The notes: generated by a model from the letters alone, not told the origin. Positions 3,001 through 22,108 are shown, counted from the first letter of the stretch. The stretch is 64,000 bases of DNA from an uncultured Clostridia bacterium (GCA_934476455.1 CAKSNY010000005.1:31455-95454); one strand, 5' to 3'. Numbers and translations: made by a program.

Positions 3001-4281
3001 AAACAGAAGCATAGCAATGTATTTGCCGTTCACCCAGTATTGACTGCCGGATGCCTGGCTGTCACGAAGTGCAACAGTAAAATTAACGTCGGATTCCACC
3101 TTTTCTTTAAGGCGCATACCTGCGTCTACCCTGCCTGACAGAGAAACTGCATTGCCTGAGGCATCTCTTGCCACGCTGTACACTGCCTCCTCCTTTTGAG
3201 ATGCACTCCCCGTATAGGCGGTACGCACCATCTCCATAACACCGTTTGCAGTATTTTCCGGTTCTTTTATAATGTTTGTGGAAAGAGAATAGAATGAACG
3301 GTCTATTCTGTCCCATTTTTGATACTTTCCGTGTATTTGGCACACGCATTTTCCAAGGATTGCGTCAGCTGCCGTAAAATCACTGTAATGCGCTACATCC
3401 CATTCATCTTTAAAATTTCCGCCTACATACGGGTAGAGGCTCTCATCAACGGGGGTATCCTCTTCCCCGAAGGTATAAATCTCCACATCATCAATATAAA
3501 ACACATCATCGCTTTGTGCATTTGCGCCGAAATCTGCACCTGTAATATTCTTCCACGATTTAAATGAAAGATACCCTATATTTGATGCATCATTTGCGGT
3601 CTGCGCACTTCCGTTATAAAACGGTACGCCAACTGTATTGAGTTTTGAATTATCAAGATACACATCAAATGTACGCGAAGCTGTATCAATGATGAAATCA
3701 AGCTTAAACCACGTATCCTGTGCGCTGTATTTTCCTAAGCTTACGGCAGTTTCGCTTGAAGAAGAAGTCGAATAAATATCTCTTTTCGCCCATTTGTTAT
3801 TTTGCAATGGCTCACGAATTCTCAGGCGTATAATACTCTTTCCGTTTTCATCCTGAAGATCTATATAAAAGCTTGTCGAATATGTTGCGGCAACATTTAC
3901 ACGCATACTTGCCTTTATCTTTCCGCTGAGCGGTATATTATTTTTCCTCAGGCTTATGCAGGGAAGCCTCACACCCTCCTCATTATAGGGTGTAACGCTT
4001 TTCAAAACATGGTTTGAAGAGTCCTTGGGGTCTGCCACAATCCGGGCATACGAGGTTCCGGAGCCTGATGAAGGCGCCCACCCGTTATACGAAAGGGTGC
4101 TTATGTCGTTTCCCAGCTTATCGGCTTCAATTGTAAAGTCACTTTTATGAAACAATATCCACTTTGCATCATCAGGGGCAATATCTGCCGCACCGCCCAA
4201 AAGCGGCGGAATAATTATTACAGAGGCCAACATTGAAAGCACGCATACAAGCGCCGTCATTTTTTTTAATTTCAATTTCAT
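1..4281 (-). CDS. Giant secreted surface protein. The 5' end is in the window and the C-terminus lies off the left edge (at least 1427 aa). It has a signal peptide, LamG/concanavalin-like beta-sandwich modules and 7 short Ig-like modules.
   Basis: It is absent from the ORF track because there is no stop codon in the window. Hand translation of the minus strand from ATG 4281 (RBS AAGGGGG at 4288-4294) gives MKLKLKKMTALVCVLSMLASVIIIPPLLGGAADIAPDDAKWILFHKSDFTIEADKLGND. I re-checked the frame at 2700 (LTDSVISTESLDNITKNLNLPAEMNGYKIEWESSLPDVIT) and at 1800 (LDIQKEGTKGKWHVDDVTIWKDREEELTAIADKL). No complete ORF in this frame is listed, so the frame stays open to position 1. Confidence 0.8.
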   Translation of the reverse strand, partial: MKLKLKKMTALVCVLSMLASVIIIPPLLGGAADIAPDDAKWILFHKSDFTIEADKLGNDISTLSYNGWAPSSGSGTSYARIVADPKDSSNHVLKSVTPYNEEGVRLPCISLRKNNIPLSGKIKASMRVNVAATYSTSFYIDLQDENGKSIIRLRIREPLQNNKWAKRDIYSTSSSSETAVSLGKYSAQDTWFKLDFIIDTASRTFDVYLDNSKLNTVGVPFYNGSAQTANDASNIGYLSFKSWKNITGADFGANAQSDDVFYIDDVEIYTFGEEDTPVDESLYPYVGGNFKDEWDVAHYSDFTAADAILGKCVCQIHGKYQKWDRIDRSFYSLSTNIIKEPENTANGVMEMVRTAYTGSASQKEEAVYSVARDASGNAVSLSGRVDAGMRLKEKVESDVNFTVALRDSQASGSQYWVNGKYIAMLLFKNGKISVKTPTQETQIGTYPRGKWFHLEIKADTTAKVYDVYIDGVKINSVSADFYSSTHNSTVAVLEYNIEKTGTAGTWYVDDAALWKDRTDDFAAFKDLLTDSVISTESLDNITKNLNLPAEMNGYKIEWESSLPDVITKDGVVYARNEKTDVTLTANIISDADAACLKRATAKKEFNVTVDVARELPEIIPKYSIKDANFKETWEVHHYSNFTVDNSKIGSTVYGYNNWDRTDRANKTYTSNFIMDPDKMNNYLLELTRFNSSSGNERPYVTLRNRDGEVKGLTGLVKIGMRLNVKEASDKPFTVVVRDSALSNYWTNGEYMIYLSFNSAGTITARRNKSTAALGEFPMDRWFELIIEADTQNRTYDVYIDGEKINTVPLAFYYEGAANDRGDISTVELDIQKEGTKGKWHVDDVTIWKDREEELTAIADKLAAEDISDEPLGAITADLNELPLIVSGKNVTWESDNKNVLTDDGKVTRSSYTQEAKLTAQIFCSDDSSLVQNAKLSKSFALKILKSDSITADNTLNAVAKNWLTEERISYEKLTEITKHLRILPIVAPDGVAISWESDKTDVITNDGFVTRPAIGESDETVILTATLCKAGAQDVTRTFVLTVKAYPTAKAVLQKARGALDLSLITYEKANAIRNRLYFIYSIEGAAISWSSSNTDVIKSDGTVVRGDTNIDVVLTATLSYNGESLPVTFNLKVLKNPVKTMQEDLDAITMPETLLKDYSLDKTGSVNMSAITWSSNNTDVIRIANYVAYIIRPEFTDGDKTVTITAKTVLEGITQSRNFNVTVTKLPSDDVLVNDVYNLLTEAYITAEDPNAITRNIALQTEFEGGVEVNWVSSDEDVIDNGGNVINPDAGEGEKTVTLTARISKRYAYLEKTFTFTVKPFISDKEKVERAAEELSFSNISSESIKAVTLPLNLVTDWKFGTSIGWSVSNGYLTITQNGEGNTVALINPPAYGSGAQTTMLTANISNGAYSTSKSFILTICEEKAY

Positions 4282-4292
4282 TGTGCACCCCC

Positions 4293-6965: not shown

Positions 6966-6982
6966 AATCTTTCGCCTCTTTC

Positions 6983-9900
6983 CTATTTAACAATCACCTT
7001 AAATTTGACAAACGTATTTCTGTCTTCCGAAAAGCCCGTAAGGGTGGTTTCCCCCTTTGTATAGGCGGTCAATGTATTCGTTTCAGAATTAAATCTTGCA
7101 ACGCTCGGATTCTGATTATACCAGTTTACCGTCTTATTTTCCGCATCGTCGGGATAAATTGTTACCTTGATTTTTCTTTCTTCATTCTGTGATAAGAAAT
7201 ACTCTTGCTCATCGGTTTTTATCGATTTAACCTTCACACTGTCAAGCGGCACCGCCCATGCATTCCAGGCGGACATTCTTTTTGAAAGAAATCTTCCCGT
7301 ATATTCCTCTATAATATCTGCCGTAAACTGTGCGCCGTTGGGACAATAGTAGGTAACAGAAGAAAGCGTCCCTCTTATTGCGTGCTCCAGAAGGTACAGA
7401 CTGTATGGCATTGCATCATTTTTACCGCACCAGCGAATGTTTTTATATGAAGTACTGTCCTTGAAAATTCTGTTGTGATAATATGCGTCAATTATATTCT
7501 CCGCAATTTTTCTCGCAAGGTCGAGATATGCACCGTTTCCCGTAGTTTCATATAAATATGATGCAATTATGCTGTTCATCGGTGTTTGATTTGTTGTAGA
7601 AAGATTGACACCGGGATTTGTTGAGCCATACTCTCCCCAATCTCCAAGGCCTCGCTTTTCTGCCATATTTCTTAGTGTTTCCCATATAATTCTGCGCTCC
7701 GTCTCTTTATCGGTACGGTGCGCCGTTTTACTGAATACCGTAAGATACGCTAAAAACATCGAGTCCGTTACGCTTTCCTCCCGCATAACGTAATTAATGC
7801 TCCGGTTATAATAATATCCCGGTCTTTCAACAATGAATCCCGTCATATCCACACCGTTTGCCCATATGGGCTTCACCTTGTCGGTGTTGGGGTTATATGC
7901 AATTTTCGCATAATTTGAAAGTCTTTTAAGGTTATAGTTCTCAATTTCCTTTACCCAGTTCTCAAGCAAAAGCTTTTCCTCTGCAGATGCATTTGCTGCT
8001 GCATTGTTAAGCTCGTCAACAAGAATAAATTCTACAGGCTGTGCAGAAAATTCCATATAGCTGGTGCCAAACATTGCATTTGCTTCTCTGCACTGGTTTT
8101 CTGCTTCCTCCTCTGTCATAAGCCCTTTCCTTACAACTTCATCCTTAAACTGAACGTATGCGCGGTCTCCATAGGTTGTCCATGTATATACAGAGTTGTA
8201 TTCAAGTATTTTTTTTATCCATTCGGGGCTGTCTATCGGGTCGGGAAATTCTTTTACGCCCGGGGCGCCGTATGCCGTAGTAAACATATATCCGCCAAGT
8301 CCCGTATTTTCATCGCACACATCTGCAAACTTTTTCCAGAGTCTGCGCGCCCATTTAAGCGCATTTACATCGCCTGATGTTTTGTAAGCCTCTGCCATTA
8401 TGTACAAAAAGTCGTTCGCCGCAAGGCGAAAACCACAGTTTAGTGTAGGAACAAGCTCCGGTCTGTATGCCTCATCATCAAATTCACTGTTCCACCACGA
8501 AAGTTCCGGCTTAGCCGTAAAGCTTCCGTGACGGTTAAAGTCAAACGTATTAAAATCTTTTATATGTATGCTCCACACGCTCTGCGCAATTGTAAGGGGC
8601 AGCGAAGGGTCAACTCTGCCAAAGGCATCAAGATAGACAAAATTATCTTTAAGCTCGTGCGTATTTACATCGGGCTCCGCTTCGTTTGGTGTACCTGTCC
8701 TTAAATCCACAGCCGCATGTCCTCCCCAATACGGCAGGCTGTTCGCAGGGGAAAGATAGTGGTCTACATAATACCGATGAATTTCATCTACTCTGTCTTT
8801 GTACTTATCATCATATATCCAGTTACCTATACCGTCCATCATCCTCATCAGATTTCCTTGCGAGGCAAGGTCTGATAGTACTGCCGGTGCAGGATTTTTT
8901 GTAGTTGTGGGATACGGCCATTCATACGGCATATCGGTAAGGGTATTGTAACCGTCGGATATAAGCGGTGTTCCGTTCCACCTGTCTGCCCCAAGCTTTA
9001 ATATTTCATCTAAAAACTCTGTCAAAATGTTAACTCTGTCATTGTCCTCCATACACGTTTTCCAGTCAAGAAGCATAATATCGCAGCTTTTCGATATCAA
9101 TGGATTTTCCTTGGAGGTTGCTTTAAGAGTTATTTTACTGTTTCTGTAACGGTCAAGCTTTCCGCCCGTTGTTATAATTCCCTTTTCCGGATCAATTGTG
9201 ACCTCCGGCGGAACATTTCCCTCCAGCGACCACGTTACATTACCCTCCATTTCATCTGCGGTCGAATTTAAAAGCGCCGCCTTGTACAAAAATTGGTTGC
9301 TGTCCTCTTTTCTCCAGCAAATTCTGGCAGGGCCCTGTATTTTTATATTATTGAGCGCATCCTCTGTAAGGTCTACCGTCATTGTATAGTTAACAGAGGC
9401 ATCATCTCTGCTCTTTACAAAAATATCAAATCTGGTTGCCGCTGCACTGTCCGTAACCTTCAGTATCAAAGTGTTTCCATCAATACTTGCCTGTATTCCG
9501 GAAACGGGCGCAAACATATAATCAACTGCCGCACCTTCAATCTCAATACCGCCGCTGTCTAAAACTGCCGCAGTATAGGTATAGCTTCTCTCACCCGTTT
9601 TCGGAATACTGATTTTATCGGGACCTTTAAGCTTTATACTTCCCTGCTCCTGACTTGTGTATATTCTGATATTATCAACATAGTGACCCGGAGAATAGCA
9701 TGTATAGCTTGAAAAATAGTCTGCCTTATAATCACTTACCGGAAGATTTTCCGCAATCATTGTGTTTGAAAGAAATACATCTGCTGTCTTTTTTAAGAGA
9801 TCAATCCTTATTTTTAAATCATACCAGCGGTTTGCAAGATAATTTTCCACAATCGTTATCCTTGTAATACCTCCGCTGCGGTATACAATATTTCCGCTTT

Positions 9901-10279
9901 CAGTTTCAAGGGTAACAATCGGCTCCTGCTCGCGCCCTACCGCAAGAATTACCACGCCATCGTTTTTTACACTTTTTTGCATATAGGACATTTCCACTGC
10001 AAGCGGAATATTGCTGTAAGTGGTTCCAAATTCCTTTTTAAGCGTAGTATACCGGCCATCCCTTGTATTTTCTATAAGAACGGCTTTGTTGTTATAAAGC
10101 TCTTTAACCTCAATATTGCCGCCGCCCTCGCCTAATGTAAAGCCTGACGGGTCAGTGCCTGCCGTTTCGCTTTCAAAGTCAGTATTTATTATAAATAAAG
10201 AGTCTGCTGTCAATGCTTGGTGCGGCATTATTACCGCTATAAGACTTACCGACAGTAGTATCGAAAGTATTCGTTTCAT
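6983..10279 (-). CDS. Secreted multidomain protein (about 1098 aa): LamG-like module, 2 Ig-like modules, a roughly 600-aa core of unassigned family, and a C-terminal Big_2-like domain. Candidate extracellular polysaccharide lyase or hydrolase.
   Basis: The ORF track entry 6983-10288 starts at GTG. The ATG at 10279 has AAGGAG 8 nt upstream and gives the signal peptide MKRILSILLSVSLIAVIMPHQALTADS. The C-terminal VTIYPDDAENKTVNWYNQNPSVARFNSETNTLTAYTKGETTLTG is Big_2-like. I cannot assign the core to a family by eye. Confidence 0.7.
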   Translation of the reverse strand: MKRILSILLSVSLIAVIMPHQALTADSLFIINTDFESETAGTDPSGFTLGEGGGNIEVKELYNNKAVLIENTRDGRYTTLKKEFGTTYSNIPLAVEMSYMQKSVKNDGVVILAVGREQEPIVTLETESGNIVYRSGGITRITIVENYLANRWYDLKIRIDLLKKTADVFLSNTMIAENLPVSDYKADYFSSYTCYSPGHYVDNIRIYTSQEQGSIKLKGPDKISIPKTGERSYTYTAAVLDSGGIEIEGAAVDYMFAPVSGIQASIDGNTLILKVTDSAAATRFDIFVKSRDDASVNYTMTVDLTEDALNNIKIQGPARICWRKEDSNQFLYKAALLNSTADEMEGNVTWSLEGNVPPEVTIDPEKGIITTGGKLDRYRNSKITLKATSKENPLISKSCDIMLLDWKTCMEDNDRVNILTEFLDEILKLGADRWNGTPLISDGYNTLTDMPYEWPYPTTTKNPAPAVLSDLASQGNLMRMMDGIGNWIYDDKYKDRVDEIHRYYVDHYLSPANSLPYWGGHAAVDLRTGTPNEAEPDVNTHELKDNFVYLDAFGRVDPSLPLTIAQSVWSIHIKDFNTFDFNRHGSFTAKPELSWWNSEFDDEAYRPELVPTLNCGFRLAANDFLYIMAEAYKTSGDVNALKWARRLWKKFADVCDENTGLGGYMFTTAYGAPGVKEFPDPIDSPEWIKKILEYNSVYTWTTYGDRAYVQFKDEVVRKGLMTEEEAENQCREANAMFGTSYMEFSAQPVEFILVDELNNAAANASAEEKLLLENWVKEIENYNLKRLSNYAKIAYNPNTDKVKPIWANGVDMTGFIVERPGYYYNRSINYVMREESVTDSMFLAYLTVFSKTAHRTDKETERRIIWETLRNMAEKRGLGDWGEYGSTNPGVNLSTTNQTPMNSIIASYLYETTGNGAYLDLARKIAENIIDAYYHNRIFKDSTSYKNIRWCGKNDAMPYSLYLLEHAIRGTLSSVTYYCPNGAQFTADIIEEYTGRFLSKRMSAWNAWAVPLDSVKVKSIKTDEQEYFLSQNEERKIKVTIYPDDAENKTVNWYNQNPSVARFNSETNTLTAYTKGETTLTGFSEDRNTFVKFKVIVK

Positions 10280-10301
10280 AGACCTCACTCCTTTTCATGC
10301 A

Positions 10302-11324
10302 TCAGACAAACCTGCTTAAAAACATAAGCGTTATTCCGTCTGAATACCCGGACTCAACAAATTTGATATTGTAATAGCCGGCAACATCCTGGCAGTCTGT
10401 ACCGCCGGAGGCGAATTTTGCCGCACCGTCATCGTAAAATTCCAGCGCTTCATTTATTTCCTTTGCCCAGCTTATATAGCTTTCATCTAAAATTTCCGCC
10501 TCGTTTCCTCTTATCGCTGCATAACCGAAAAGCTGTGACGCGGTAGACTCCTCGTAGCTGTCCTCTTGATCAACAAGTGTTCTGATCATACCTTTTTCTG
10601 TTTTAAGCGATTTTGCCTTTGCCATAACGGTTTTGAAAATACTTTTAAAATTATCAGGGCAATTTTCCGTTCCCAGTATATTAAAAATTTCTGAAAGGGC
10701 AGCTACTACCCAGCCGTTTCCCCTGCCCCAGTGTGCGCCGAGGCGTTTTTCCTCTATACAATGATATCCGTGGCTGAAAAGCTGTGCATCCGCGTCAAAA
10801 AGACATTCAAGGTGTATCTTAAACTGCTCTATACCGTCACGTAAAAGCTTTTCGTCACCTATCTCTTTTCCGTACGCAACCATAAACATTCCTGCCATAA
10901 AAACACTGTCTGCCCACAGCTGATTTTTATAATCTTCAAGACCGCCTCTGCTCCATACGTGTGCAAGGGCGCCGTTTGTTGTCTTAAGTGCAGCCTCCTT
11001 TGTCCACGCTGCATATGTATCACATATATCCTTATAAAAGCTGTCCTTCGTTTTTTTGTAAAGCGTAAGCGCTGCATAACACGGAATTACACAGTTTACA
11101 GAGCCGAAAATCTTTTTTTCATTGTTTCTTTTAAACCATGCCTTTAAAAAGGCGGCGTACTCCTCCTCTTTTGTCGCTTCATATGCTTTTGCAATACCTG
11201 CAAGGCAAACCCCCTGGCTCCATTCCCAGTAGTCAATAAATCTGCCTTTTTTTTCATCGTTTTCAATAATTGTACCAAGCAGTTTTTTCATATGTTCCCT
11301 TGCGGTATTTTTACTAATAAGCAT
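10302..11324 (-). CDS. GH105/GH88-type unsaturated uronyl hydrolase (YteR/YesR-like), cytoplasmic.
   Basis: 340 aa with no signal peptide. Family-typical motifs are present: YWEWSQGV, LWADSVFMAGMF, HWGRGNGWV. The RBS AAAGGGGGA lies upstream of ATG 11324. Confidence 0.8.
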   Translation of the reverse strand: MLISKNTAREHMKKLLGTIIENDEKKGRFIDYWEWSQGVCLAGIAKAYEATKEEEYAAFLKAWFKRNNEKKIFGSVNCVIPCYAALTLYKKTKDSFYKDICDTYAAWTKEAALKTTNGALAHVWSRGGLEDYKNQLWADSVFMAGMFMVAYGKEIGDEKLLRDGIEQFKIHLECLFDADAQLFSHGYHCIEEKRLGAHWGRGNGWVVAALSEIFNILGTENCPDNFKSIFKTVMAKAKSLKTEKGMIRTLVDQEDSYEESTASQLFGYAAIRGNEAEILDESYISWAKEINEALEFYDDGAAKFASGGTDCQDVAGYYNIKFVESGYSDGITLMFLSRFV

Positions 11325-11412
11325 ATTGCGGATCCCCCTTTAATTTTCGCCGCAAAAATATACGGCGCCATCCCATTATTTAATGTTATTTTACGGCTGC
11401 AAAAGCAAAAAA

Positions 11413-11445
11413 GTCAATAGACACTTTCTGTCAATTGGACAATTT
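11413..11445 (-). promoter_or_regulatory. Operator-like bipartite motif, copy 3, facing the GH105 operon.
   Basis: The minus strand reads AAATTGTCCAATTGACAGAAAGTGTCTATTGAC, which fits TGTCC-N13-TGTCTATTGAC. The 3' end forms a TTGACT -35-like hexamer, followed 18 nt later by TAAAAT. Confidence 0.55.
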
Positions 11446-11535
11446 ATAATGTCATTTACGGGCATACTTTTTTTAATTTTTACACAAATGGCTTTATAAC
11501 CGCTTTTTGCAGCTTTTTTCCTTTTAATTTTAGTT

Positions 11536-11570
11536 TTAATTGTCCAGTTGTGAAAATCTGTCTATTGAAA
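11536..11570 (+). promoter_or_regulatory. Operator-like bipartite motif, copy 4, facing the SBP gene.
   Basis: TTAATTGTCCAGTTGTGAAAATCTGTCTATTGAAA fits TGTCC-N13-TGTCTATTGAAA. It lies 55 nt upstream of ATG 11625. Confidence 0.55.
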
Positions 11571-11624
11571 ATAAATATAAAGTATGTTATCGTAAAATCA
11601 ACAAAACAAGGAGGTATAGAAAAA

Positions 11625-13211
11625 ATGAAATTCAAAAAAAGACTTGCTCTTCCTCTGGCTCTTGCACTGTTTCTTTGTGCGTGCACGGGCGGTGGCGGCA
11701 GTCCAAAAACTGCCCGGGGCGACACTGCGGCGCTTGGCGATTATCCTATCCAAAGCGATACCGAGCTTACCTATTGGGTTGCACTCAACGGAAACGTTGC
11801 GGCAACAGCTTCAAACCTTGGTGACACACCGTTTGCCAAAGAGCTTGAAAAGCAGACGGGTATAAAGGTAAAATATATACACCCTGCGTTAGGTCAGGAG
11901 AGTGAAGCCTTCAGCCTTATGGTTGCTTCAAACGAGCTGGCAGACATCGTGGAAGAAGCATGGAGCGTTGCTTTGGGAGGCCCTACCACTTCAATTGACG
12001 ACAAAATTATTGTTGAGCTTAACGAATATATGAAAGATTATGCACCTGCTTTTTATTCTTATTTAAAAGAAAATCCTGACATTGACAAAGCTGTAAAAAC
12101 CGATCAGGGACAATACTATGTTTTTCCGTTTATACGCGGCAATGACAAGCTTCTTATCTCCGCGGGACCCATAATCCGTAAGGATTGGCTTGATGAGCTC
12201 GGTATGGATATTCCCAAAACTTTAGAAGACTGGGAAAAGATGCTTATCCGTTTCCGCGACGAAAAGGGTGCAACCGCACCGCTTACCCTGCAAAAAAACC
12301 AGAAAAGTATGCTTTTTGCCCTTATGTCAACGACCTCTTACTTCTATAATGACGGCGGCACAATTAAGTACGGACCGCTGGAAGAAGAATATTATGAAGC
12401 ATTAAAGACGCTTAACCGCTGGTTTAAGGAAGGTCTTCTTGACAAAAACTACACAATGGTTGACAGTTCTATTCAAGACTCCAACATTCTTAACGGCAAG
12501 TCAGGCGCAACCTTCGGCAGCGGCGGAAGCGGGCTTGGAAAGTGGATGCAGACAATGAATGGCAAAGACAGCAAGTACGATCTTATCGGTGTTTCATATC
12601 CCTATATCGGAGATGTTCCTGCACAGTATATTCCCGTACAGCCACCGTGGGGCGGCTCAGGTGCGGCAATCACAACAGCCTGCAAAAACATTCCCATTGC
12701 TATGAAGTTTCTTGACTACTCTTATACAGAGGCAGGACATATTCTCAATAATTTCGGTATTGAGGGCAAAAGCTTCAACTATGTTGATGGTCAGCCAATT
12801 TATACTGATTACATTATGAAAAACAGTGAAGGACTTACGGTAAGTCAGGCAATGGGACAGTATAACCGTGCAAACTACCTCGGACCGTTCGTTCAGGATG
12901 TACGTTACATTGAACAATATTATGAAACAGACCGTCAGAAGGAGGCTCTTACAGCTTGGTTCAGCGGTCCAAAGGAATCTACAAGCAAGGCGCTTCCCTC
13001 GACAACCTTTACCCCCGGCGAAAACACAGAATTTTCTGCTATAGTTAACGAAGCGACAAAATACTGCACAGAGACAACTGCGGCATTCATTTCAGGCGCA
13101 AAATCACTTGATGAATATGATAAGTTCATTAAAGATTTGAAAGACCTTAAGATTGACCGTGCCATCGAGATTTATCAGACCGCGCTTAACCGTTACAACA
13201 ACAGAAAATAA
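11625..13211 (+). CDS. ABC transporter extracellular sugar-binding lipoprotein (large LplA/YtcQ-like family-1 SBP).
   Basis: The in-frame ATG at 11625 is preceded by AAGGAGG (11608-11614). The lipoprotein signal is MKFKKRLALPLALALFLCAC (lipobox LCAC). About 528 aa. The 11550 start in the ORF track is an upstream artefact. Confidence 0.88.
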   Translation: MKFKKRLALPLALALFLCACTGGGGSPKTARGDTAALGDYPIQSDTELTYWVALNGNVAATASNLGDTPFAKELEKQTGIKVKYIHPALGQESEAFSLMVASNELADIVEEAWSVALGGPTTSIDDKIIVELNEYMKDYAPAFYSYLKENPDIDKAVKTDQGQYYVFPFIRGNDKLLISAGPIIRKDWLDELGMDIPKTLEDWEKMLIRFRDEKGATAPLTLQKNQKSMLFALMSTTSYFYNDGGTIKYGPLEEEYYEALKTLNRWFKEGLLDKNYTMVDSSIQDSNILNGKSGATFGSGGSGLGKWMQTMNGKDSKYDLIGVSYPYIGDVPAQYIPVQPPWGGSGAAITTACKNIPIAMKFLDYSYTEAGHILNNFGIEGKSFNYVDGQPIYTDYIMKNSEGLTVSQAMGQYNRANYLGPFVQDVRYIEQYYETDRQKEALTAWFSGPKESTSKALPSTTFTPGENTEFSAIVNEATKYCTETTAAFISGAKSLDEYDKFIKDLKDLKIDRAIEIYQTALNRYNNRK

Positions 13212-13234
13212 ATATAAAGATAAAGATAAAAAAA

Positions 13235-13270
13235 CCTCCCGTAATCACAAAGATTTCGGGAGGTTTTTTG
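13235..13270. terminator. Bidirectional rho-independent terminator between the convergent SBP and regulator genes.
   Basis: Stem CCTCCCG (13235-13241) pairs with CGGGAGG (13257-13263). An A-run lies upstream and TTTTTT lies downstream. Confidence 0.8.
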
Positions 13271-13289
13271 TTATTGTGTTTATTTCTTC

Positions 13290-15533
13290 TTATTTCTTCA
13301 GGCTGCTTCTGTATGCACTTGGTGTTATGCCCTCATATTTTTTAAATATACGGTTAAATGTTCGTATATGCCCGTAGCCTACCTTCTGCGAAATTTCCAT
13401 AATTGTAAGAGAGGTATTTTCCATCATTTCTTTCGCCTTATGCACTCTGTAGTTATTTATATAGTCTACCATCGTTGTTGTACAGTTCTTTTTAAACAGC
13501 TTTGAAAGATATGCAGGATAAACATCAAAATGATCTCCGATTGAATTTATATTCAGGTTAATATCTTGATAATTCTCCTCTATATAGCGGCATACGGCAT
13601 CAAATTTTGCACTGTCATCAAGCTTATTTTTGGGAGCGCAGCTTTCGTTTGCAAGCTTAATAAGCTTTTGTTGCAGCTCGCCAAGCGTTGCCGATGACAG
13701 AAGCTCCTGCGCATTAAAGCTCTGCTTTCCCATCGTTTCGGGAACTTTTAATACTGCCGCCGAAAGATCAAACATCAGCATTTTAATATTTTCAAGAGAA
13801 AGCGTTTCATCCTTTTTTATACTCTCAAAAAGCTCGTTTATATAGGCTGCGGCATCCTCTTTCTCCCCCATTTGCAAAAGATTGATAAGCTTTTTTTCTT
13901 GTTCAAGGCTGAAATGGTGATCAGATACACTCGTTTTCTTAATTTCACCAAAAAACAGTGATTTTTCTATTGCCCTCATTCTTTTGTACTCCAGCGCATA
14001 CATAGCCTCACTGTATGCACTGCTGAGCATATTTGCACCGCTGTGAACACCCGACACACAAACTGTAAGTTTAAGCGCAAAGTGCTTTTTTATCATAGAA
14101 AGCCCATAATTTATTATTCTTTCAAAGAACTCTATATCTGCCGCTATATGACTTGCTACACATACAATATTATTTTCCACATTCACCACATATCCCGAGC
14201 TTTTTGCCGTAGTAAATATTTCCTCAAAAATATTGCCTATGATAAAGCGTACCTCAAGCTGCTTTTGCTCCTCGCTGAGATTTTCCTCCGGCAAAAATGC
14301 CGCAAACTCTTCCGGATTAAACGCAAAAACAACAATGCTGCCCGGATGCACTTTAATATCATATTCCTTAAATGCTTCCTCCATCTCACCGTGCGGCAAT
14401 GTCCCTTTAAGAATTTGCGCCAAAGCATTTGCGTGCAGACTTAATTTGTATTTTTCAGCAATAGTTTCTAAATTTTTGTTCTTTGTAAATGAATTTTCAA
14501 GTGAGGTTCTTATTTTTTTATACTCGTCTTCATAATCACTCAGTCCGCAAAGCTCCAAAAGCTCTTTAACGGGCTTGTAATCACGCCGCACGAAATACCA
14601 CGCCAGCGCTACGCCTATCAGGATACAAAACAGTATAACGCCTACCGAAACAAGCCTCATTTTAAATATTTCACGGTATAACAGATTTTTATGTCCCACG
14701 GTTACAAGCGTCATACTGATTGTATCATACGTAACACGGTTTACCTGCACAATATTATTTTTCTTTTTCTCCCTTTTTAAAAGCTCTTCCATGCTCCGCG
14801 GTAAATTTTTCTCAGATGCGTCTGCTTCAAGAAGGCCGCCGTTACTTGTAAAAAGATAAATATCACAATCCGTAAGCCATCTGTTATCGGGAATACGTTT
14901 AAAAAAGTCGCTCTTTTTAACAATAACGGAAAAAGATATATTTCCGTAGCGGTGCAGAATATTTTGCGGAAAAGCCATATGGTATGTCATCATTTCGGAA
15001 GGCGTCACACTGCCCACATCCTTAGCGCCGTCAGAAATACTGTAAGTACTGTCTTTTACAAAATGGCTTTTTTTCCACTGCTCATAAGAAATAATATTGC
15101 TGTCAAAATATGTTTCATAGTAAAACTTACTGTCATAAACTCCGTTTTCTGCAATAACCATATCTGTTGCCGGCTGGTAAATATATGCGCGTTCATAATT
15201 ATCGCGGTATATTCTGCTTTCTCCAAACCAGTCTAAAAAGTTTTGCGCCCCTTGTGAATAGATTATTTTATCCTTAGGTACAGATAGGATTTTTTCAAGG
15301 TCATCGTGAAAGGCAACCTCGGCATAATACTTCCTTATACTGACTAAAACATCTTTTACATTATCTGCCGCTATGCTTGTAACCAAATCATTGTTTTCCT
15401 TAAGCTGCTCCGTCATTTTATCGGAATACCCGTCCGTAAGCGTAAGCGAAGATACAATGGGAACAAGCAGTATAATGGCATATGATAAAATCCAAGTTAC
15501 TATTAGTTTTGGTTTTTTCTTGATAAATTTCAT
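13290..15533 (-). CDS. Membrane-spanning AraC-family one-component regulator (YesS-like): TM, extracytoplasmic sensor, TM, cytoplasmic linker, AraC HTH.
   Basis: The C-terminal AraC HTH is YQDINLNINSIGDHFDVYPAYLSKLFKK...YRVHKAKEMMENTSLTIMEISQKVGYGHIRTFNRIFKKYEGITPSAYR. Hydrophobic segments are LIVTWILSYAIILLVPIVSSL and LVSVGVILFCILIGVALAWYFV. The ATG at 15533 is preferred over the GTG at 15539. Confidence 0.85.
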   Translation of the reverse strand: MKFIKKKPKLIVTWILSYAIILLVPIVSSLTLTDGYSDKMTEQLKENNDLVTSIAADNVKDVLVSIRKYYAEVAFHDDLEKILSVPKDKIIYSQGAQNFLDWFGESRIYRDNYERAYIYQPATDMVIAENGVYDSKFYYETYFDSNIISYEQWKKSHFVKDSTYSISDGAKDVGSVTPSEMMTYHMAFPQNILHRYGNISFSVIVKKSDFFKRIPDNRWLTDCDIYLFTSNGGLLEADASEKNLPRSMEELLKREKKKNNIVQVNRVTYDTISMTLVTVGHKNLLYREIFKMRLVSVGVILFCILIGVALAWYFVRRDYKPVKELLELCGLSDYEDEYKKIRTSLENSFTKNKNLETIAEKYKLSLHANALAQILKGTLPHGEMEEAFKEYDIKVHPGSIVVFAFNPEEFAAFLPEENLSEEQKQLEVRFIIGNIFEEIFTTAKSSGYVVNVENNIVCVASHIAADIEFFERIINYGLSMIKKHFALKLTVCVSGVHSGANMLSSAYSEAMYALEYKRMRAIEKSLFFGEIKKTSVSDHHFSLEQEKKLINLLQMGEKEDAAAYINELFESIKKDETLSLENIKMLMFDLSAAVLKVPETMGKQSFNAQELLSSATLGELQQKLIKLANESCAPKNKLDDSAKFDAVCRYIEENYQDINLNINSIGDHFDVYPAYLSKLFKKNCTTTMVDYINNYRVHKAKEMMENTSLTIMEISQKVGYGHIRTFNRIFKKYEGITPSAYRSSLKK

Positions 15534-15587
15534 ACCCACACCCCACTGCTGCTATTATAAAAGAAAAAACGGATTTTGTAAAGGTGT

Positions 15588-15628
15588 TTCCATTTATTGT
15601 CCTGTGTTCCCTTTGTTGTCTATTTACA
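15588..15628 (+). promoter_or_regulatory. Operator-like bipartite motif, copy 1, overlapping the -35 of the permease operon promoter.
   Basis: TTCCATTTATTGTCCTGTGTTCCCTTTGTTGTCTATTTACA. TTTACA (15623-15628), then N16, then TACAAT (15645-15650). Confidence 0.65.
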
Positions 15629-15677
15629 ATAAAGTATTTTATGCTACAATAAATCTATCAAGGTTAGGAGGATTTGT

Positions 15678-16553
15678 ATGAAATCGAAAATCAAAACATT
15701 TGATATGATTAACATTTTAATTATGTTAATTCTGGTTCCAATTATGCTCTATCCCATATGGCATGTAATTATGGCTTCATTTTCGGAAAGCTCGCTTCTT
15801 ACGGGGCATACGGGACTTATATTAAAGCCGCAAGGGTTTAGTGTTGATTCGTACAGGCTTATGGTTAAAAACCCAATGATTTTTAAGGGTTATCTTAACA
15901 CAATCTTCATTGTTGTAGTGGGCGTAACGCTTAATGTAGCTTTCACGGCGCTTGGTGCATACTGTCTTTCAAGAAAGGGCCTTTACTGGCAAAAACACAT
16001 TATGATGATTATGGTTTTTACGATGTATTTTTCCGGCGGCCTTATTCCCCGTTACCTTATGATTACACAAAGCTATCACATGACAAACTCGTATTGGTCA
16101 TTGATTCTCCCCGGACTTATCAGTACATATAACCTTATTATTATGCGCACCTCCTTTGCGGCACTTCCCGACAGCCTCGAGGAATCAGCGAAGCTTGATG
16201 GTGCAGGCGCAATCAGAATTCTTGTAAGCATAGTAATACCGCTCTCAATGCCGGTTATCGCTGTTATGATACTCTATTACGCGGTGGGACACTGGAATGC
16301 GTGGTTTGATGCAAGTATTTATATCAAAGAACGTGAAAAGTTCCCGCTTCAGCTTATACTTCGTGAAATACTTATTATAAATGATACAAACAGTATGACA
16401 CAGGGCAGCGGTGATGCCTCTGATCAGATGGCAATCGGCGAAACCGTAAAATATGCAGTTATTGTTGTTTCTACACTGCCTATTTTATGCGTCTATCCGT
16501 TTTTACAAAAATATTTCCAAAAGGGCGTTATGATAGGCGCGGTTAAGGGTTAA
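15678..16553 (+). CDS. Carbohydrate ABC transporter permease (LplC/YtcP-like).
   Basis: 291 aa and multi-TM. It carries an EAA-type loop, LEESAKLDGAGAIRILVSIVIPLS. The RBS AGGAGG lies upstream. Confidence 0.9.
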   Translation: MKSKIKTFDMINILIMLILVPIMLYPIWHVIMASFSESSLLTGHTGLILKPQGFSVDSYRLMVKNPMIFKGYLNTIFIVVVGVTLNVAFTALGAYCLSRKGLYWQKHIMMIMVFTMYFSGGLIPRYLMITQSYHMTNSYWSLILPGLISTYNLIIMRTSFAALPDSLEESAKLDGAGAIRILVSIVIPLSMPVIAVMILYYAVGHWNAWFDASIYIKEREKFPLQLILREILIINDTNSMTQGSGDASDQMAIGETVKYAVIVVSTLPILCVYPFLQKYFQKGVMIGAVKG

Positions 16554-16566
16554 GGGAGGAATACCA

Positions 16567-17514
16567 ATGCAGAAAATTAAAAAACGGAATGATATATATA
16601 AGGAAAGCTGGTTTACAACCGTTTCCAAGGATTTTAAGCGTAATCGTACAATTTATTTGTTACTTATACCCGTACTTCTATACTACATTATGTTTCATTA
16701 TGCACCGATGTACGGCTCTGTAATAGCATTTCAGAATTTCAAGCCCCAAAAAGGAATTTTGGGAAGTGATTTTGTAGGCTTGATGCACTTTAAAAATTTC
16801 TTCAACAGCCCGTTTTTCGGAAGAATTCTTTTTAATACACTGAGAATCAGTTTTGCTTCAATTATATTTGGTTTTCCCGCACCGATTATCCTTGCACTGC
16901 TGCTTAACGAGCTGAAATTTCCCCGTTTTGCTAAAGTAGTGCAAAATATTACGTATATGCCGCACTTTATTTCTCTGGTTGTTATTTGCAGCCTTATACG
17001 CGAATTTACGCTTGATACGGGTGTTATAAACTACATACTGGGCTTTTTTGGGTTTACGCCGACATCGCTTCTTAATTTCCCGCAATACTTTACCACAGTT
17101 TACGTTGCATCGGGAATATGGCAGGAAATCGGCTGGGGGTCTATAATTTATCTTGCGGCGCTTTCAGGTCTTGACCCTGCTCTTTACGAGGCTGCAACAA
17201 TTGACGGTGCAAACAGATTTGACCAGATGCTTCACGTTACACTTCCCGGTATATTGCCAACAATTATAATTATGCTTATATTAAAGCTCGGTCAGGTTTT
17301 AAGTGTCGGTTATGAAAAAATTATTCTTCTTTATAACGATAACACAATGAGTGTTGCAGATGTTATCTCAACTTATGTTTATGCAAAAGGACTTTTAGAC
17401 CTTGACTGGAGCTTCAGTTCTGCAGTCGGGCTCTTTAACTCAATAATCAATTTCCTTTTCCTGAACGCAGCAAACTTTATCAGCAAAAAGACAAGCGAAT
17501 ACAGCTTGTGGTAA
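16567..17514 (+). CDS. Carbohydrate ABC transporter permease (LplB/YteP-like).
   Basis: 315 aa and multi-TM. The EAA loop is YEAATIDGANRFDQMLHVTLPGI. The RBS GGGAGGA lies upstream. Confidence 0.9.
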   Translation: MQKIKKRNDIYKESWFTTVSKDFKRNRTIYLLLIPVLLYYIMFHYAPMYGSVIAFQNFKPQKGILGSDFVGLMHFKNFFNSPFFGRILFNTLRISFASIIFGFPAPIILALLLNELKFPRFAKVVQNITYMPHFISLVVICSLIREFTLDTGVINYILGFFGFTPTSLLNFPQYFTTVYVASGIWQEIGWGSIIYLAALSGLDPALYEAATIDGANRFDQMLHVTLPGILPTIIIMLILKLGQVLSVGYEKIILLYNDNTMSVADVISTYVYAKGLLDLDWSFSSAVGLFNSIINFLFLNAANFISKKTSEYSLW

Positions 17515-17527
17515 AAAAATGGGGGGT

Positions 17528-17555
17528 TGTAGCAAAATGGAATCATTTTGCTACA
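17528..17555 (+). terminator. Hairpin downstream of the permease operon.
   Basis: A 12-bp stem: TGTAGCAAAATG, loop GAAT, CATTTTGCTACA. The trailing T-tract is weak (CCACCTTTATTT). Confidence 0.45.
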
Positions 17556-17625
17556 CCACCTTTATTTGGTGTATTTAGACGTGGAAATAGCCCCCCTGCT
17601 TTGCGTAATACAAGGCAGGGGGTTA

Positions 17626-17937
17626 TTAGTATAAAAAGGAAGGAAATGTCACTATTTTGTTTCCTCTGTTGATATTAAGCACTTTCGCAATAGGACCAAG
17701 TTCGTGGGTAGGGTAATTGTCACAGTTTCTGTTGAGATAGTTTCTAAGCCTGTAATGACGATTTTCTATTCCGCCTGCAATTTCATCACAAAGATAATGA
17801 TTATCCCCTCCGCTGCAGTGAACAACTTATCCAAATATCACCGTACGTGCCATATTGAGAGCTGTCAACTCCTTCTGCCCATAACAGCAATTCTCAAGCA
17901 TCAGTATTCCGCGCTGTCCCATACCTATACATCCTAA
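17626..17937 (-). pseudogene. Internal fragment of a Gfo/Idh/MocA-family (GH109-like / YteT-like) oxidoreductase gene with an in-frame stop.
   Basis: The minus-strand translation is LGCIGMGQRGILMLENCCYGQKELTALNMARTVIFG*VVHCSGGDNHYLCDEIAGGIENRHYRLRNYLNRNCDNYPTHELGPIAKVLNINRGNKIVTFPSFLY*. The motifs MLENCCYG..EL..LNM and YPTHxLGP...NINRGN are typical of this family. The TAA at 17827-17829 interrupts the frame. Only about 100 of roughly 450 aa are present. Confidence 0.55.
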
Positions 17938-17978
17938 TCAAATTTTGCTCATTATAAACTACCCCTCTCATTTTAACT

Positions 17979-18839
17979 TTAAATTTTAAAAAGTATAAGA
18001 GCCAAAGTCGCAATTATAACACCTATAATCTGTTTTTTATTAAACTTCTCTTTAAATATAAACAATGATATTAAAAACGTAATCAGGTTCGTAATGCCGG
18101 CACTTACCGGTGAAACTATACTGATAGGCATCATCATATTTACTATTAATCCAAGCCAATTAGTAACACCGTTTGAAATTCCCGATAAGGCAGCATATAC
18201 TCCTCCGTTTTTCATAATATACAGTATATTTCCTCTATCTTTTATAAGACCTATTTCAATCAGGGATACTGCGGAAAAGGCCAATGTAATAATCATAAAT
18301 TCATTTGAATACATATCATTGAATTTAACTTGCTGCATTTTCATCAATATTCCTAAAAATCCTGACGCAAACAGACTGATAATTATAGCCGCACACCATA
18401 AAGGAGTAATTGCTTTCTTTGCACTTTCAGTGCTATTTTCAGATTTTATAAGGTATATGGAAATGAGCATCAGAATAATACCTATATATGTAAAAGCAGA
18501 AACGGGATCATTCAAAAATACAATGCCGTACACTATTGAAAACATGAGGGAATATGAAAGAATCAGCATGGTAAGGGCAAACGAACCACATCCCAATGCT
18601 ATATAAGTGAAAATTGATGCGCTGCTGTAGCAAATACCGCCCAATATACCGTAAGGAACAATGCCCCCTGTAAAATTAATCCCATTAGTGTCTGAAATCA
18701 CAAAGAACAACATTGAAAACAATGATACAATACCTGTAAAAAGGAATCCACCCTCAGAATATTTTGAATTATACTTTTTTATAAGTGTGCCTTCAACCAT
18801 ATGCACCATGGTTTTTAGAATGATAAGCAAAACAGCCAT
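17979..18839 (-). CDS. EamA/DMT-superfamily membrane transporter (about 10 TM).
   Basis: 286 aa and almost entirely hydrophobic, with an internally duplicated 5-TM layout. Its ATG lies 1 nt after the stop of the upstream GH-like gene. The RBS GGAGGAAG sits inside that gene's 3' end. Confidence 0.7.
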   Translation of the reverse strand: MAVLLIILKTMVHMVEGTLIKKYNSKYSEGGFLFTGIVSLFSMLFFVISDTNGINFTGGIVPYGILGGICYSSASIFTYIALGCGSFALTMLILSYSLMFSIVYGIVFLNDPVSAFTYIGIILMLISIYLIKSENSTESAKKAITPLWCAAIIISLFASGFLGILMKMQQVKFNDMYSNEFMIITLAFSAVSLIEIGLIKDRGNILYIMKNGGVYAALSGISNGVTNWLGLIVNMMMPISIVSPVSAGITNLITFLISLFIFKEKFNKKQIIGVIIATLALILFKI

Positions 18840-18840
18840 T

Positions 18841-20781
18841 TTATACTTCCTCCACCGTTAAGGTTAATACCTTTCCTGCCTCTGCCTCTATATTCAGAGT
18901 TTTTCCGTCATATCTGCATCCTTTGGGAAGATTTACAAAAGTATATCCTTCTGCCGGAATATAAAGTTCTCCGCCATTCCAACTGAATATGTTAAACGTC
19001 TCTTTCCCGTCACATACAAACAAGCTGTCACCGCCGAAGGTTTGTGCCGTTATTCTTCCATCCTCCGCTATAAGCTCCCAATCCCCGTTTTCGTTATAAA
19101 ACGGATGTCCATCTGTTTTTTTGCCGCTCAGGCTGAGAAGATTTTTAAGCGCTTTCATTTCGTTATCGGGGAGCCTTATTCCGTCGTGGAACTTATTAAC
19201 ATAGTAAAGTGACGGCGTGGAATATACCGTTGCCTTTATGTAGGTTTCCTTAACCCAATCGGTAAGCATTATCGCACCGTCTGAATCTATCAGAAGATTA
19301 GGGCACGCGAGAGCCGACGCTCTTGCTCGCAGCTCCCTCTCCTCATATACATTCTGTATATCGTGCAAACGGTTCATTGCCATTACTGTTTCAAATCTCG
19401 GATCACATCCGCTTCCGTTAAGGAGAACGTCACTCTTCACCTTAACTGCCGCCTTCTGGAATTCTTCATAAAATCGGTACATTTCCTTAATACCTATACC
19501 ATTTTCAGGATTTTGATAATGCACATCTCTGTCAGGTCTTCTGAGATTAGCCAGAAAGTCCATTTTTAGTCCATCACAGTTAAGTGCGTCACTGTCACAG
19601 CTGAAGAACAGTCTTGAGAGCTCGTCAAAGTATTCTCCTATTTTGTCAGAGGTAAAGTCCACATAATATTTTCCGTCTACTATACCTCCGCTGAGTGCGT
19701 CAGGTGAAAGGACCCCCATCCTTTGAGCCAATGTCTCAAATCCGTTAGACGGATTATCTATCAGCGGCGCACTCCATAAAAGAACCTTATGCCCTCCCTC
19801 GTGACATTCATCAATAAATTTCCTTAAATCAGAAAATCTTTCTTCGTCCACCTTTGCCTCTGCACTGAATTCGTGCTGCCAGAAAGCGTCAATTACTATT
19901 GTAAAGTCATTTTTACCCAAGATTTCCTCGGCACGTTTAAGCCACATTCTCAGCCATTCCGTAGTAAATTCGTCACAACCCCAGTCATCTGCCGTATACC
20001 AGTTATACTGCAAGTCCATCATCTGGTCGCCGTATGTAACAAGAAGCGGCCTTTTCCACCAAGAGGGAATTTCCTTCCTCTTTTCGGGAAGCAGGTTTCT
20101 CTTTCCAAGCTCTTCCCTAAAAAGACTGATGCTTTCCCACCGGGTTTTTGGGAAAGTGATAAGAAGCCTCGGTGCCTTATATGTATCCCCCTTTTTTGTT
20201 ACCAATTTTCCGCCGCGGTTCTCCACAAGTATTCCAAGCCTTGGTGTCATTCTATATTCAAATGAATCGGGCAAATCCAAAAGACCGAATGCTATCCAGC
20301 CACTGCGGTTTCCCACACAGAAATTCAGCGGCGGCGGCGCGAAATATGCATTCATTGTACAATCACAGAAAACCTTTTCAAAGGCACGGTTTACACCCTC
20401 GTTATTTCTTGGTGCGGGTGCAAAATATTTAATGCAGTCCACCATATACATACCCTTAGGACCGTTTCTGAAAAGCTCTGTCTGCTGTACATATACGTCT
20501 TTTCTTGCCTCTGCAGAAAAGGAAACCTCTATACTGTCCTCGTTAAGCAGGAAAGAAAGGCTTATTGTTCCGAAACGGTCGCACAGGCTTTTCGCAGAAA
20601 CAGTAAGCGTATTTCCCTCAAAGGAATATTCAGGCTTTACGGTTTGTATCTCCTCTCCGCCTTCGGCAAAAAGTGCCGATGCAGGTATTTTCAGATATCT
20701 TCCTCCATCGCTGTTATACAAAATAACCTCGTTAGCAATCTCACTATATTCAAAAATATAGTTACGTTTATTAATTACCAT
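18841..20781 (-). CDS. Cytoplasmic glycoside-hydrolase-like protein, 646 aa. A clan GH-D (GH36-like) TIM barrel is suspected.
   Basis: No signal peptide. CDGLKMDFLAN resembles the (F/L)K(I/M)DF nucleophile strand of GH36-type alpha-galactosidases. The RBS GGAGGAG lies upstream of ATG 20781. The family call is tentative. Confidence 0.5.
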   Translation of the reverse strand: MVINKRNYIFEYSEIANEVILYNSDGGRYLKIPASALFAEGGEEIQTVKPEYSFEGNTLTVSAKSLCDRFGTISLSFLLNEDSIEVSFSAEARKDVYVQQTELFRNGPKGMYMVDCIKYFAPAPRNNEGVNRAFEKVFCDCTMNAYFAPPPLNFCVGNRSGWIAFGLLDLPDSFEYRMTPRLGILVENRGGKLVTKKGDTYKAPRLLITFPKTRWESISLFREELGKRNLLPEKRKEIPSWWKRPLLVTYGDQMMDLQYNWYTADDWGCDEFTTEWLRMWLKRAEEILGKNDFTIVIDAFWQHEFSAEAKVDEERFSDLRKFIDECHEGGHKVLLWSAPLIDNPSNGFETLAQRMGVLSPDALSGGIVDGKYYVDFTSDKIGEYFDELSRLFFSCDSDALNCDGLKMDFLANLRRPDRDVHYQNPENGIGIKEMYRFYEEFQKAAVKVKSDVLLNGSGCDPRFETVMAMNRLHDIQNVYEERELRARASALACPNLLIDSDGAIMLTDWVKETYIKATVYSTPSLYYVNKFHDGIRLPDNEMKALKNLLSLSGKKTDGHPFYNENGDWELIAEDGRITAQTFGGDSLFVCDGKETFNIFSWNGGELYIPAEGYTFVNLPKGCRYDGKTLNIEAEAGKVLTLTVEEV

Positions 20782-20840
20782 GGTTCTCCTCCAATATAGA
20801 ATGATTATATCAGCGTCATTCTATCAAAGAATTTTTTTAC

Positions 20841-20881
20841 TGTAAATAGACAACAAGAGGAACATAGGACAATAAGTGGAA
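20841..20881 (-). promoter_or_regulatory. Operator-like bipartite motif, copy 2, overlapping the -35 of the GH36-like/DMT operon promoter.
   Basis: The minus strand reads TTCCACTTATTGTCCTATGTTCCTCTTGTTGTCTATTTACA, 37/41 identical to copy 1. It is followed by N17 and then TAGAAT (plus-strand 20818-20823). Confidence 0.65.
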
Positions 20882-21794: not shown

Positions 21795-21841
21795 ACTGGT
21801 GAGCCATCGGAGATTCGAACCCCGGACAACTTGATTAAAAG
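21795..21841 (-). repeat. Distal att direct repeat: the displaced 3' portion of tRNA-Lys.
   Basis: ACTGGTGAGCCATCGGAGATTCGAACCCCGGACAACTTGATTAAAAG is 47/47 identical to 28627-28673. Confidence 0.9.
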
Positions 21842-21954
21842 AAATATATAATGGATTTTATTAAATATATATTACCTATAATTTGATTAATGATTTATTT
21901 CTATTTTAATTTGTTTTATTATTTACTAAATTTTAATTTTTACTTTTATGCTTT

Positions 21955-21977: not shown

Positions 21978-22036
21978 ATAAAATACCTATTCTTTTATCC
22001 TTTGCATAATAATATATACAAATAGTATAGTTTGAG

Positions 22037-22065: not shown

Positions 22066-22108
22066 ATATGTATATTGAATATATACTAATTGTACGGAGG
22101 TTTTGTAT

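Follow-up and report, generated by a model that had tools for sequence, protein, structure and literature searches.

A 64,000-nt stretch of DNA from an uncultured Clostridia bacterium (GCA_934476455.1 CAKSNY010000005.1:31455-95454), hereafter the window, to which all positions given without a locus label refer, carries a short two-part sequence in front of several operons for carbohydrate use. Which protein reads this sequence, and to what effect on the promoters concerned? The operons belong to a locus (locus A) that gathers, within 21 kb, an AraC-family regulator, a solute-binding protein (SBP), two permeases, and enzymes of the GH88/105, PL2, and GH31-like types, which is the composition of a Gram-positive polysaccharide utilization locus (gpPUL). 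The sequence is probably a tandem direct-repeat operator with a period of 18–19 bp, used for class II activation by the adjacent AraC-family sensor, a 747-aa protein with two predicted transmembrane (TM) segments. An operator in AraC-type activator position, serving the adjacent regulator, had already been proposed in an earlier, sequence-only reading of the window; phylogenetic footprinting, the co-occurrence of site and regulator, the direct-repeat geometry, and the co-conservation of the regulator's putative recognition helices all argue for this proposal.

Sequence, position, and architecture of the sites

The window contains exactly four copies of the motif ATTGTCC-N13/14-TGTCTATT (28–29 bp, in two parts); both in sequence and in position, they are those described before. 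Copies 3 (11416..11443, minus strand) and 4 (11539..11566, plus strand), both of the form ATTGTCC-N13-TGTCTATT, are an inverted pair 93 nt apart that serves divergent promoters, namely, those of the GH105/GH88–PL2 lyase–SLH operon and of the SBP gene, respectively. Copy 1 (15588..15624, plus strand) lies at the promoter of the ABC permeases, and copy 2 (20845..20881, minus strand), with a 15 + 4 + 15 layout, at that of the GH31-like–EamA operon. The latter two differ at 4 of 41 positions, so that the 37/41 identity reported for them holds. When the window was subjected to 100 dinucleotide-preserving shuffles, 0.00 matches to TGTCC-N12-15-TGTCTATT were expected, compared with the four observed, and all four TGTCTATT octamers present in the 64 kb are inside the four copies. 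Searches of the window with three mismatches allowed returned no further credible copy.

A two-block position weight matrix (PWM), built solely from sites that had not been chosen via the exact pattern, gave scores between 25.3 and 27.0 bits for the four window sites (25.3 for copy 3, 26.6 for copy 4, and 27.0 for both copies 1 and 2). The next-best position in the window reached 13.1 bits, which is inside the random range (11.9–22.2 bits, the maxima of 20 Markov windows). A PWM scan of the window plus ∼75 kb of related loci found just one weaker site, at a GH105 promoter of a relative (L091; 19.2 bits). The window contains exactly four sites, without a halo of weak ones.

Promoters were located by an independent sigma-A promoter scan and are, throughout, predicted. 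The scan found a −35/−10 pair at each copy: TTGACT-18-TAAAAT for the GH105 operon (11388..11417, minus strand), TTGAAA-17-TGnTATCGT for the SBP gene (11565..11593, plus strand), TTTACA-16-TGnTACAAT for the permease operon (15623..15650, plus strand), and TTTACA-17-TGnTAGAAT for the GH31-like–EamA operon (20818..20846, minus strand). Every copy points to its operon, and the notion that each abuts a −35-like hexamer was thereby borne out; in all four cases, the final TT of the motif supplies the first two bases of the predicted −35 box. The same succession, TGTCTA followed directly by TTKAnn, a 16–18-bp spacer, and a −10 box (often an extended TGn one), was observed at the window promoters, at their orthologues, and at the additional promoters described below. 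A proximal half-site set against the −35 box in fixed orientation is the arrangement of class II operators of the AraC/XylS type, here with respect to predicted promoters. The regulator gene also has a predicted promoter of its own (15554..15582, minus strand; TTTACA-17-TATAAT), which is near-consensus; no other promoter of the region comes closer to the consensus. It diverges from that of the permeases, and 14 bp separate it from the operator, without overlap with the motif. Thus, the motif sits on the −35 box of four of the five transcription units of locus A, not on that of every promoter, as had been claimed.

Each site consists of the unit TTGTCY, present twice in the same orientation; it is a non-palindromic direct repeat, as in AraC-type operators. 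Copy 1 is a 15-bp direct repeat (TTCCATTTATTGTCC / TTCCCTTTGTTGTCT) with a gap of 4 bp, so that the units recur every 19 bp. The same reading, two TTCCnTTTrTTGTCY units of 15 bp with 4 bp between them, suits most N14 sites; in the N13 sites, the TTGTCY cores alone are retained, with a period of 18 bp. In nine of 10 N14 sites, the best self-match was at an offset of 19; it was at 18 for the SBP promoter of the window (N13), and the GH105 site (N13) peaked at 25, with 18 in second place. A period of 19 bp therefore applies to the permease, GH31-like, GDSL, and GH2 promoters (the latter two are introduced below), and one of 18 bp to the GH105 and SBP promoters of the window. In the information profile, conservation forms two blocks. 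The second half-site had been delimited as TGTCTATT; this octamer is indeed conserved, but its final TT is the −35 hexamer itself, and the true repeat unit is TTGTCY. The promoter-proximal 15-bp unit stops one base short of the −35 hexamer. If transcription starts ∼7 nt after the −10 box, the two units would occupy positions of about −37 to −51 and −56 to −70. Dyad symmetry was not seen within any site, which led to rejection of a palindromic repressor-type operator (LacI/GntR). A 31-nt inverted repeat at 11414-11568 was also considered as a palindrome, but it simply represents the two opposed copies at the divergent promoters.

Conservation of the probable operator and of its putative regulator

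To follow the sites across relatives, contigs encoding relatives of the regulator were compared. Loci found through their proteins are free of the bias that comes with an exact pattern; these protein-fetched loci, for which looser criteria were used, and the window itself are the basis of the footprinting argument. The relatives of the regulator show 99, 93, 91, 88, 62, and 58% identity, after which the values fall to 25%. In every lineage sampled, the regulator gene is divergent from a motif-bearing permease promoter, and this promoter has the operator at each orthologous locus, over the whole range of 58–99% regulator identity. The intergenic region between permease and regulator genes contains four conserved islands, corresponding to the −10 box of the regulator, its −35 box, the operator, and the −35/−10 boxes of the permease promoter, and the bases between them diverge. 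These islands are kept at 91, 88, 62, and 58% regulator identity. In the 58% lineage (L005), 12 bp are inserted between the regulator promoter and the operator, and the operator has kept its distance to the −35 box of the permease promoter, which ties the operator to the permease promoter. The SBP and GH105 operators are both kept in the 91% lineage (L006) and also, with N14 spacing, in a 62%-type relative (L091). The GH105 site of the latter, ATTGTCT-N14-TGTCTATT, was missed by the exact pattern because its distal core reads TGTCT.

Conservation of this kind bears on whether the motif binds a protein at all. The copies could be parts of a promoter cassette that was spread by duplication or gene conversion, or an RNA element, and the close identity of copies 1 and 2 is what one would expect of a cassette. 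However, the copies abruptly cease to be similar at the edges of the motif (46 bp in BLAST), on which ground a duplicated promoter cassette was rejected; the N13 and N14 sites have just the two half-sites in common; and a cassette or an RNA element sits poorly with island-like conservation across lineages of 58–99% regulator identity. The position of the element upstream of the predicted −35 box means that it would not be transcribed, which argues against an RNA element; this candidate was dropped also because no significant Rfam family was found and the copies do not fold (z-scores of +0.65 to −1.8). An origin without protein binding is, consequently, very improbable.

The GH31-like protein offered a means of separating the motif's link to the regulator from that to the target gene, as it has many homologues in a graded series of identities. 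An operator precedes the GH31-like gene where the 747-aa regulator is encoded in the locus, that is, in L224 and L225 (same species) and in L227 (another lineage). For GH31-like orthologues of 71, 64, and 53% identity in other loci, the best PWM scores were 12.7–13.0 bits in 14–22 kb, which is background. Of three GH31-like loci lacking the regulator, one encodes a PocR-AraC regulator and another a small cupin-AraC regulator, and in the third the gene is part of a different operon. By this comparison of sequences, the motif follows the regulator rather than the target gene.

The regulator (13290..15533, minus strand) is encoded by the sole regulator gene of locus A. Its ATG start at 15533 agrees with homologues of 747 aa. 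The predicted layout comprises a TM segment (∼12–34), an external domain of ∼260 aa (∼35–295), a second TM segment (∼296–318), GGDEF_2-like α/β and helical cytoplasmic modules, and an AraC double helix-turn-helix (HTH) at ∼640–747. This topology was read from the sequence, that is, from hydrophobic stretches at ∼12–34 and 296–318, and the structural model has a long helix at 285–317. It corresponds to the YesS/RhgR-type architecture (∼750 aa; TM, external, TM, and cytoplasmic parts followed by an AraC HTH). The double HTH is recognized by Pfam (PF12833, 6e-19; PF00165, 2e-14; residues 640–748), which makes the protein a candidate cognate regulator encoded nearby. By sequence and fold, it matched the DNA-binding domains of YesN, AraT, AraC, SoxS, and MarA in the PDB, the closest being YesN, AraT, and AraC (TM-score up to 0.92); solved relatives were found for the HTH only. 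In the AlphaFold model, the confidence measure pLDDT is <50 for residues 1–365, so that the cytoplasmic half alone is usable and no fold was assigned to the external sensor domain. In the 58–62% orthologues, the HTH domain is 73–74% identical, compared with 56–58% for the ectodomain. Among all orthologues that share the motif, two putative recognition-helix segments, YPAYLSKLFKK and GYGHIRTFNRIFKKYEG, show virtually no variation, and they are altered in the nearest non-orthologous homologue, which is just 25% identical, and in a paralogue encoded at a second locus of the window (locus B).

These data also bear on the notion that the operator is real but belongs to another factor encoded elsewhere, for example, a YesN-type response regulator with AraC output or some other protein binding direct repeats. 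Further AraC-type regulators do exist in this genome, among them the one at locus B, and one target operon, GH2–GH123, is unlinked to the regulator gene. Nevertheless, the divergent arrangement of this very regulator gene and the motif-bearing permease promoter recurs in every lineage sampled, the motif is gone from GH31-like orthologues exactly where the regulator is absent, the recognition helices are co-conserved with the motif, and locus A contains no other regulator gene. Another factor is, therefore, an improbable owner of the operator.

Size of the proposed regulon and likely sign of regulation

How specific the motif is, and how many promoters carry it, was addressed by an exact scan (ATTGTCC-N13/14-TGTCTATTKA) over 185,579 species-representative GTDB genomes (596 Gb), which yielded 93 stretches. 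Of these, 85 were spread over unrelated phyla, nearly always as single hits, at a rate of ∼5e-4 per genome. The remaining eight, which had matching flanks, came from three related metagenome-assembled genomes (MAGs) of gut Clostridia/Oscillospiraceae, and all eight were in promoter position before carbohydrate genes; within the collection, clustered copies are confined to these three related gut MAGs. In a pattern scan of metagenomes, the matches listed comprised one true permease promoter (L144) and ∼119 hits of the background kind, which had no promoter context.

The MAG CAKSGG01, which originates from a Hadza gut sample, is of the window's species (99.1–99.7% identity to the window). Each of its four hits occupies a promoter position; the permease and GH31-like promoters account for two, and the other two are new. 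One new site precedes the gene for a 648-aa GDSL esterase; it was also found in a second lineage (L050), so that the operator of the GDSL promoter is kept in two lineages, and synteny with L050 places the gene just past the left edge of the window, after the giant SLH gene. The other precedes an operon for a GH2 β-galactosidase and a GH123 enzyme, the one unlinked to the regulator. Both sites have the form TGTCTATTTACA-17-TAGAAT. Although this same-species census rests on a fragmented MAG, the number of motif-bearing promoters in this species is at least six. The motif is, thus, a four-copy one within the window but not for the species, in which at least two further copies exist; likewise, the earlier proposal of a four-promoter regulon for the regulator at 13290-15533 was apt as to the operator and too small as to the regulon.

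How could the switch work? Two subunits of the 747-aa AraC-family protein would bind the half-sites head-to-tail, with the proximal subunit contacting sigma region 4 at the −35 box, in the manner of AraC at araI1–araI2 and of XylS at Pm. A pectin- or rhamnogalacturonan-derived oligosaccharide may be sensed outside the cell by the external domain, upon which the sensor would activate the sigma-A RNA polymerase from a class II position. The importer (ABC SBP and permeases) would be co-induced with the enzymes and surface proteins, that is, GH105, the PL2 lyase, SLH-anchored surface proteins, the GH31-like enzyme with its DMT transporter, the GDSL esterase, and GH2 with GH123, and the regulator itself would be expressed from its separate near-consensus promoter. 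A pectic or rhamnogalacturonan-type inducer is suggested by the enzyme set (GH105, PL2, GDSL esterase, and GH2). The analysis shows the motif itself, its statistics, conservation, and fixed position, and the fact that it accompanies the regulator; which protein binds, whether it activates, what induces it, and where transcription starts are inferred from sequence.

As for the sign, the same protein could act at the same site as a repressor or a dual regulator: the uninduced sensor would block the access of sigma region 4 or of the C-terminal domain of the polymerase α subunit, and the inducer would relieve this block. The site does touch the −35 box, and the target promoters look strong by themselves (nine to 10 of 12 consensus positions), with TTTACA, TTGACT, or TTGAAA as −35 boxes, 16–18-bp spacers, and good −10 boxes, extended by TGn in three of them. 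Such strength would be unusual for strict activator dependence and would leave room for repression or dual control. On the other hand, the conserved element lies wholly upstream of the −35 box, not over the −35/−10/+1 region, and its orientation and distance to the −35 box are identical at at least six independent promoters. A polymerase-contacting activator needs such fixed orientation and distance, and a steric repressor does not; invariance of the orientation and of the zero-base distance to the −35 box at six promoters and their orthologues, therefore, favors activation over repression. Pure repressors are rare in the AraC family. YesS, to which the regulator is compared below, is an activator (PMC2788870). 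Repression or dual control by this protein is, all in all, unlikely.

Besides the strength of the target promoters, several other observations weigh against class II activation by the adjacent regulator. Sites from the collection scan were chosen by the exact core pattern, so that the invariance of their cores is partly built in. The half-site periodicity of ∼21 bp typical of AraC-family operators was not found, as it is 18–19 bp here. The spacing differs by 1 bp among sites and even among orthologous promoters; in a distant relative, the promoters orthologous to those of SBP and GH105 use N14, which indicates that this shift is tolerated. Finally, a membrane-tethered protein must reach at least one unlinked promoter, that of GH2–GH123. 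A more far-reaching version of class II activation by this sensor would have the membrane-tethered protein directly occupy at least six promoters, at least one of them unlinked, via an operator phased by 18–19 bp, with paralogous switches for one glycan each; this is doubtful. If it were true, either several loci would be drawn to the membrane by a sensor with an undescribed dimer geometry, or the DNA-binding domain would be released from the membrane, and private direct-repeat operators of an analogous kind may serve the sister regulator of the window and further ones in the genome.

The sister regulator, a second membrane AraC sensor at locus B (58100-60385), shows 39% identity to the regulator of locus A, and this in the HTH domain only. 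At this locus, three copies of GGTTTAAA follow one another in the same direction (starts at 56972, 56994, and 57014, together 56972-57021), with periods of 22 and 20 bp, so that three of its seven window copies fall within 50 bp. The triplet is situated where the locus-B surface-protein/ABC operon and the operon for EamA and the second AraC sensor (57156-60385) diverge, in the region of their promoters. It is a candidate for the private operator of the paralogue; a different triple repeat at the paralogue's promoter region would fit one private operator per paralogue.

Gene surroundings and comparison with known systems

Unless otherwise stated, gene assignments are from Pfam. The first target operon (1..11324, minus strand) encodes a GH88/GH105 enzyme (10302-11324), a secreted PL2 protein of 1101 aa (6983-10288; Pectate_lyase_2, E = 2.4e-84, residues 440–990, plus a Big_2 domain), an SLH-anchored protein (4293-6965), and a giant SLH/aBig_2 protein (1-4281) that extends past the left edge of the window. 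As the PL2 match covers the full domain length, the lyase feeding GH105 would be of a recognizable family. The second target is the ABC SBP gene (11625..13211, plus strand), and the third is the operon of two ABC permeases (15678..17514, plus strand), followed by a terminator (17592-17622). The fourth (17979..20781, minus strand) comprises the GH31-like enzyme of 646 aa (18841-20781) and an EamA/DMT transporter (17979-18839). The enzyme had been labeled GH36-like, which is incorrect in that its Pfam match is to GH31 alone, and weak (E = 8e-8). A search by sequence returned no PDB relative for it, and its >100 homologues, the most distant at ∼31% identity, come from Clostridia (gut and environmental), Planctomycetota, and other groups. 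It looks like a member of an uncharacterized glycosidase family that is, in this clade, paired with an EamA transporter.

Comparison with relatives revealed several differences in gene content. Directly after the EamA gene, as part of the GH31-like operon, relatives have an intact 408-aa Gfo/Idh/MocA–GH109_C gene (L006 1070-2296; L227 3148-4374), of which the window (17626-17937) has fragments only. L006 1446-1715 and 2346-2407 align to window positions 17903-17634 and 17637-17577, respectively, and these fragments support a gene relic in this strain. In the same relative, 1-1128 is 98.9% identical to window positions 17894-19021 (EamA gene plus the end of the GH31-like gene), compared with 85–89% for the remaining locus, and such mosaic identity suggests recent recombination between lineages. 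Several relatives also carry a GH3 gene after the regulator gene, on the same strand and at a gap of 2–31 bp (L001 10403-12421; L008 2372-4381; L227 8867-10876), which is probably co-transcribed with it; the window strain has no GH3 gene there and the convergent SBP gene instead. Next to the GH31-like promoter, other strains of the species have a different integrase-bearing element (L224/L225 1-4300, compared with window positions 20950-28700), beyond which a 1428-aa DSE-like_N/Hepar_II_III_C (heparinase II/III-like lyase) protein is encoded. The edge of locus A is, on this comparison, a variable integration hot spot. In a 62%-type relative (L001 24-5119), the locus adjoins a bacterial microcompartment cluster (shell proteins, aldehyde dehydrogenase, PTAC, and RnfC-like) with a DeoR regulator; the type of microcompartment, as for fucose/rhamnose-derived propanediol, is compatible with a rhamnose-containing substrate.

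The switch described here is well supported computationally and mechanistically ordinary, and existing knowledge of how such switches work is left unchanged. Its interest lies elsewhere. AraC-type regulators are common in the polysaccharide loci of gut Firmicutes, and their operators and regulons have almost never been defined; the literature searched contained no account of either the motif or the regulon of this clade. Now, an exactly defined, conserved operator is available for an uncultured gut Oscillospiraceae/Clostridia lineage, together with a coherent regulon that comprises six or more promoters. This regulon joins an ABC importer with GH105, PL2, a GDSL esterase, GH2, GH123, and an uncharacterized GH31-like enzyme, and ties unlinked genes to one substrate response. 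The defined half-sites, with their natural spacing of 18–19 bp, also provide an experimental handle on the specificity of membrane-anchored AraC sensors.

Class II activation in the AraC family is exemplified by AraC at araI1–araI2 (E. coli araBAD), XylS at Pm, and RhaS at rhaBAD. In the AraC layout, tandem direct half-sites are arranged such that the proximal one abuts or overlaps the −35 box and the distal one is centered near −63. The sites of locus A resemble araI2/araI1 in having two half-sites of the same direction, the predicted occupancy of which (given above) would give nearly the same layout, and the regulator shares with AraC, XylS, and RhaS the C-terminal double HTH and, as proposed, the response to a sugar. 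The period, however, is 18–19 bp (15-bp units and a gap of 3–4 bp), compared with 21 bp for AraC; the regulator is a membrane-anchored protein of 747 aa with an external sensor, whereas AraC is cytoplasmic and has a cupin domain; and the predicted promoters, in contrast to those of the AraC systems, have good −35 boxes.

As regards topology, YesS is closer, being membrane-anchored and consisting of a TM segment, an external domain, a second TM segment, a cytoplasmic region, and a C-terminal AraC HTH. Like YesS, the regulator is an AraC-family protein of ∼750 aa within a locus with GH105 and a CUT1-type ABC oligosaccharide importer, a likeness that was drawn by description. YesS (RhgR), a large B. 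subtilis protein of this family encoded in the rhamnogalacturonan (yes) locus, was experimentally shown to be an activator (PMC2788870), and comparative genomics treated it as governing a local rhamnogalacturonan regulon (PMC3870299). Unlike the yes locus, locus A has no YesMN two-component pair, and its enzyme set is a different one (PL2, GH31-like, GH2, GH123, and SLH surface proteins); its operator, moreover, appears specific to a small Oscillospiraceae/Clostridia clade. AraC-type proteins are the commonest gpPUL regulators in gut Firmicutes (PMC5320581), and AraC-family sugar regulators typically use lineage-specific direct-repeat operators with a periodicity of 21 bp (PMC3870299). The regulon of locus A conforms to such RegPrecise-style AraC regulons and gpPUL regulators in being local, in covering one to several operons, and in using a lineage-specific direct repeat before genes for carbohydrate-active enzymes and ABC transporters; it departs from the reported pattern in its period of 18–19 bp and in its membrane-anchored regulator.

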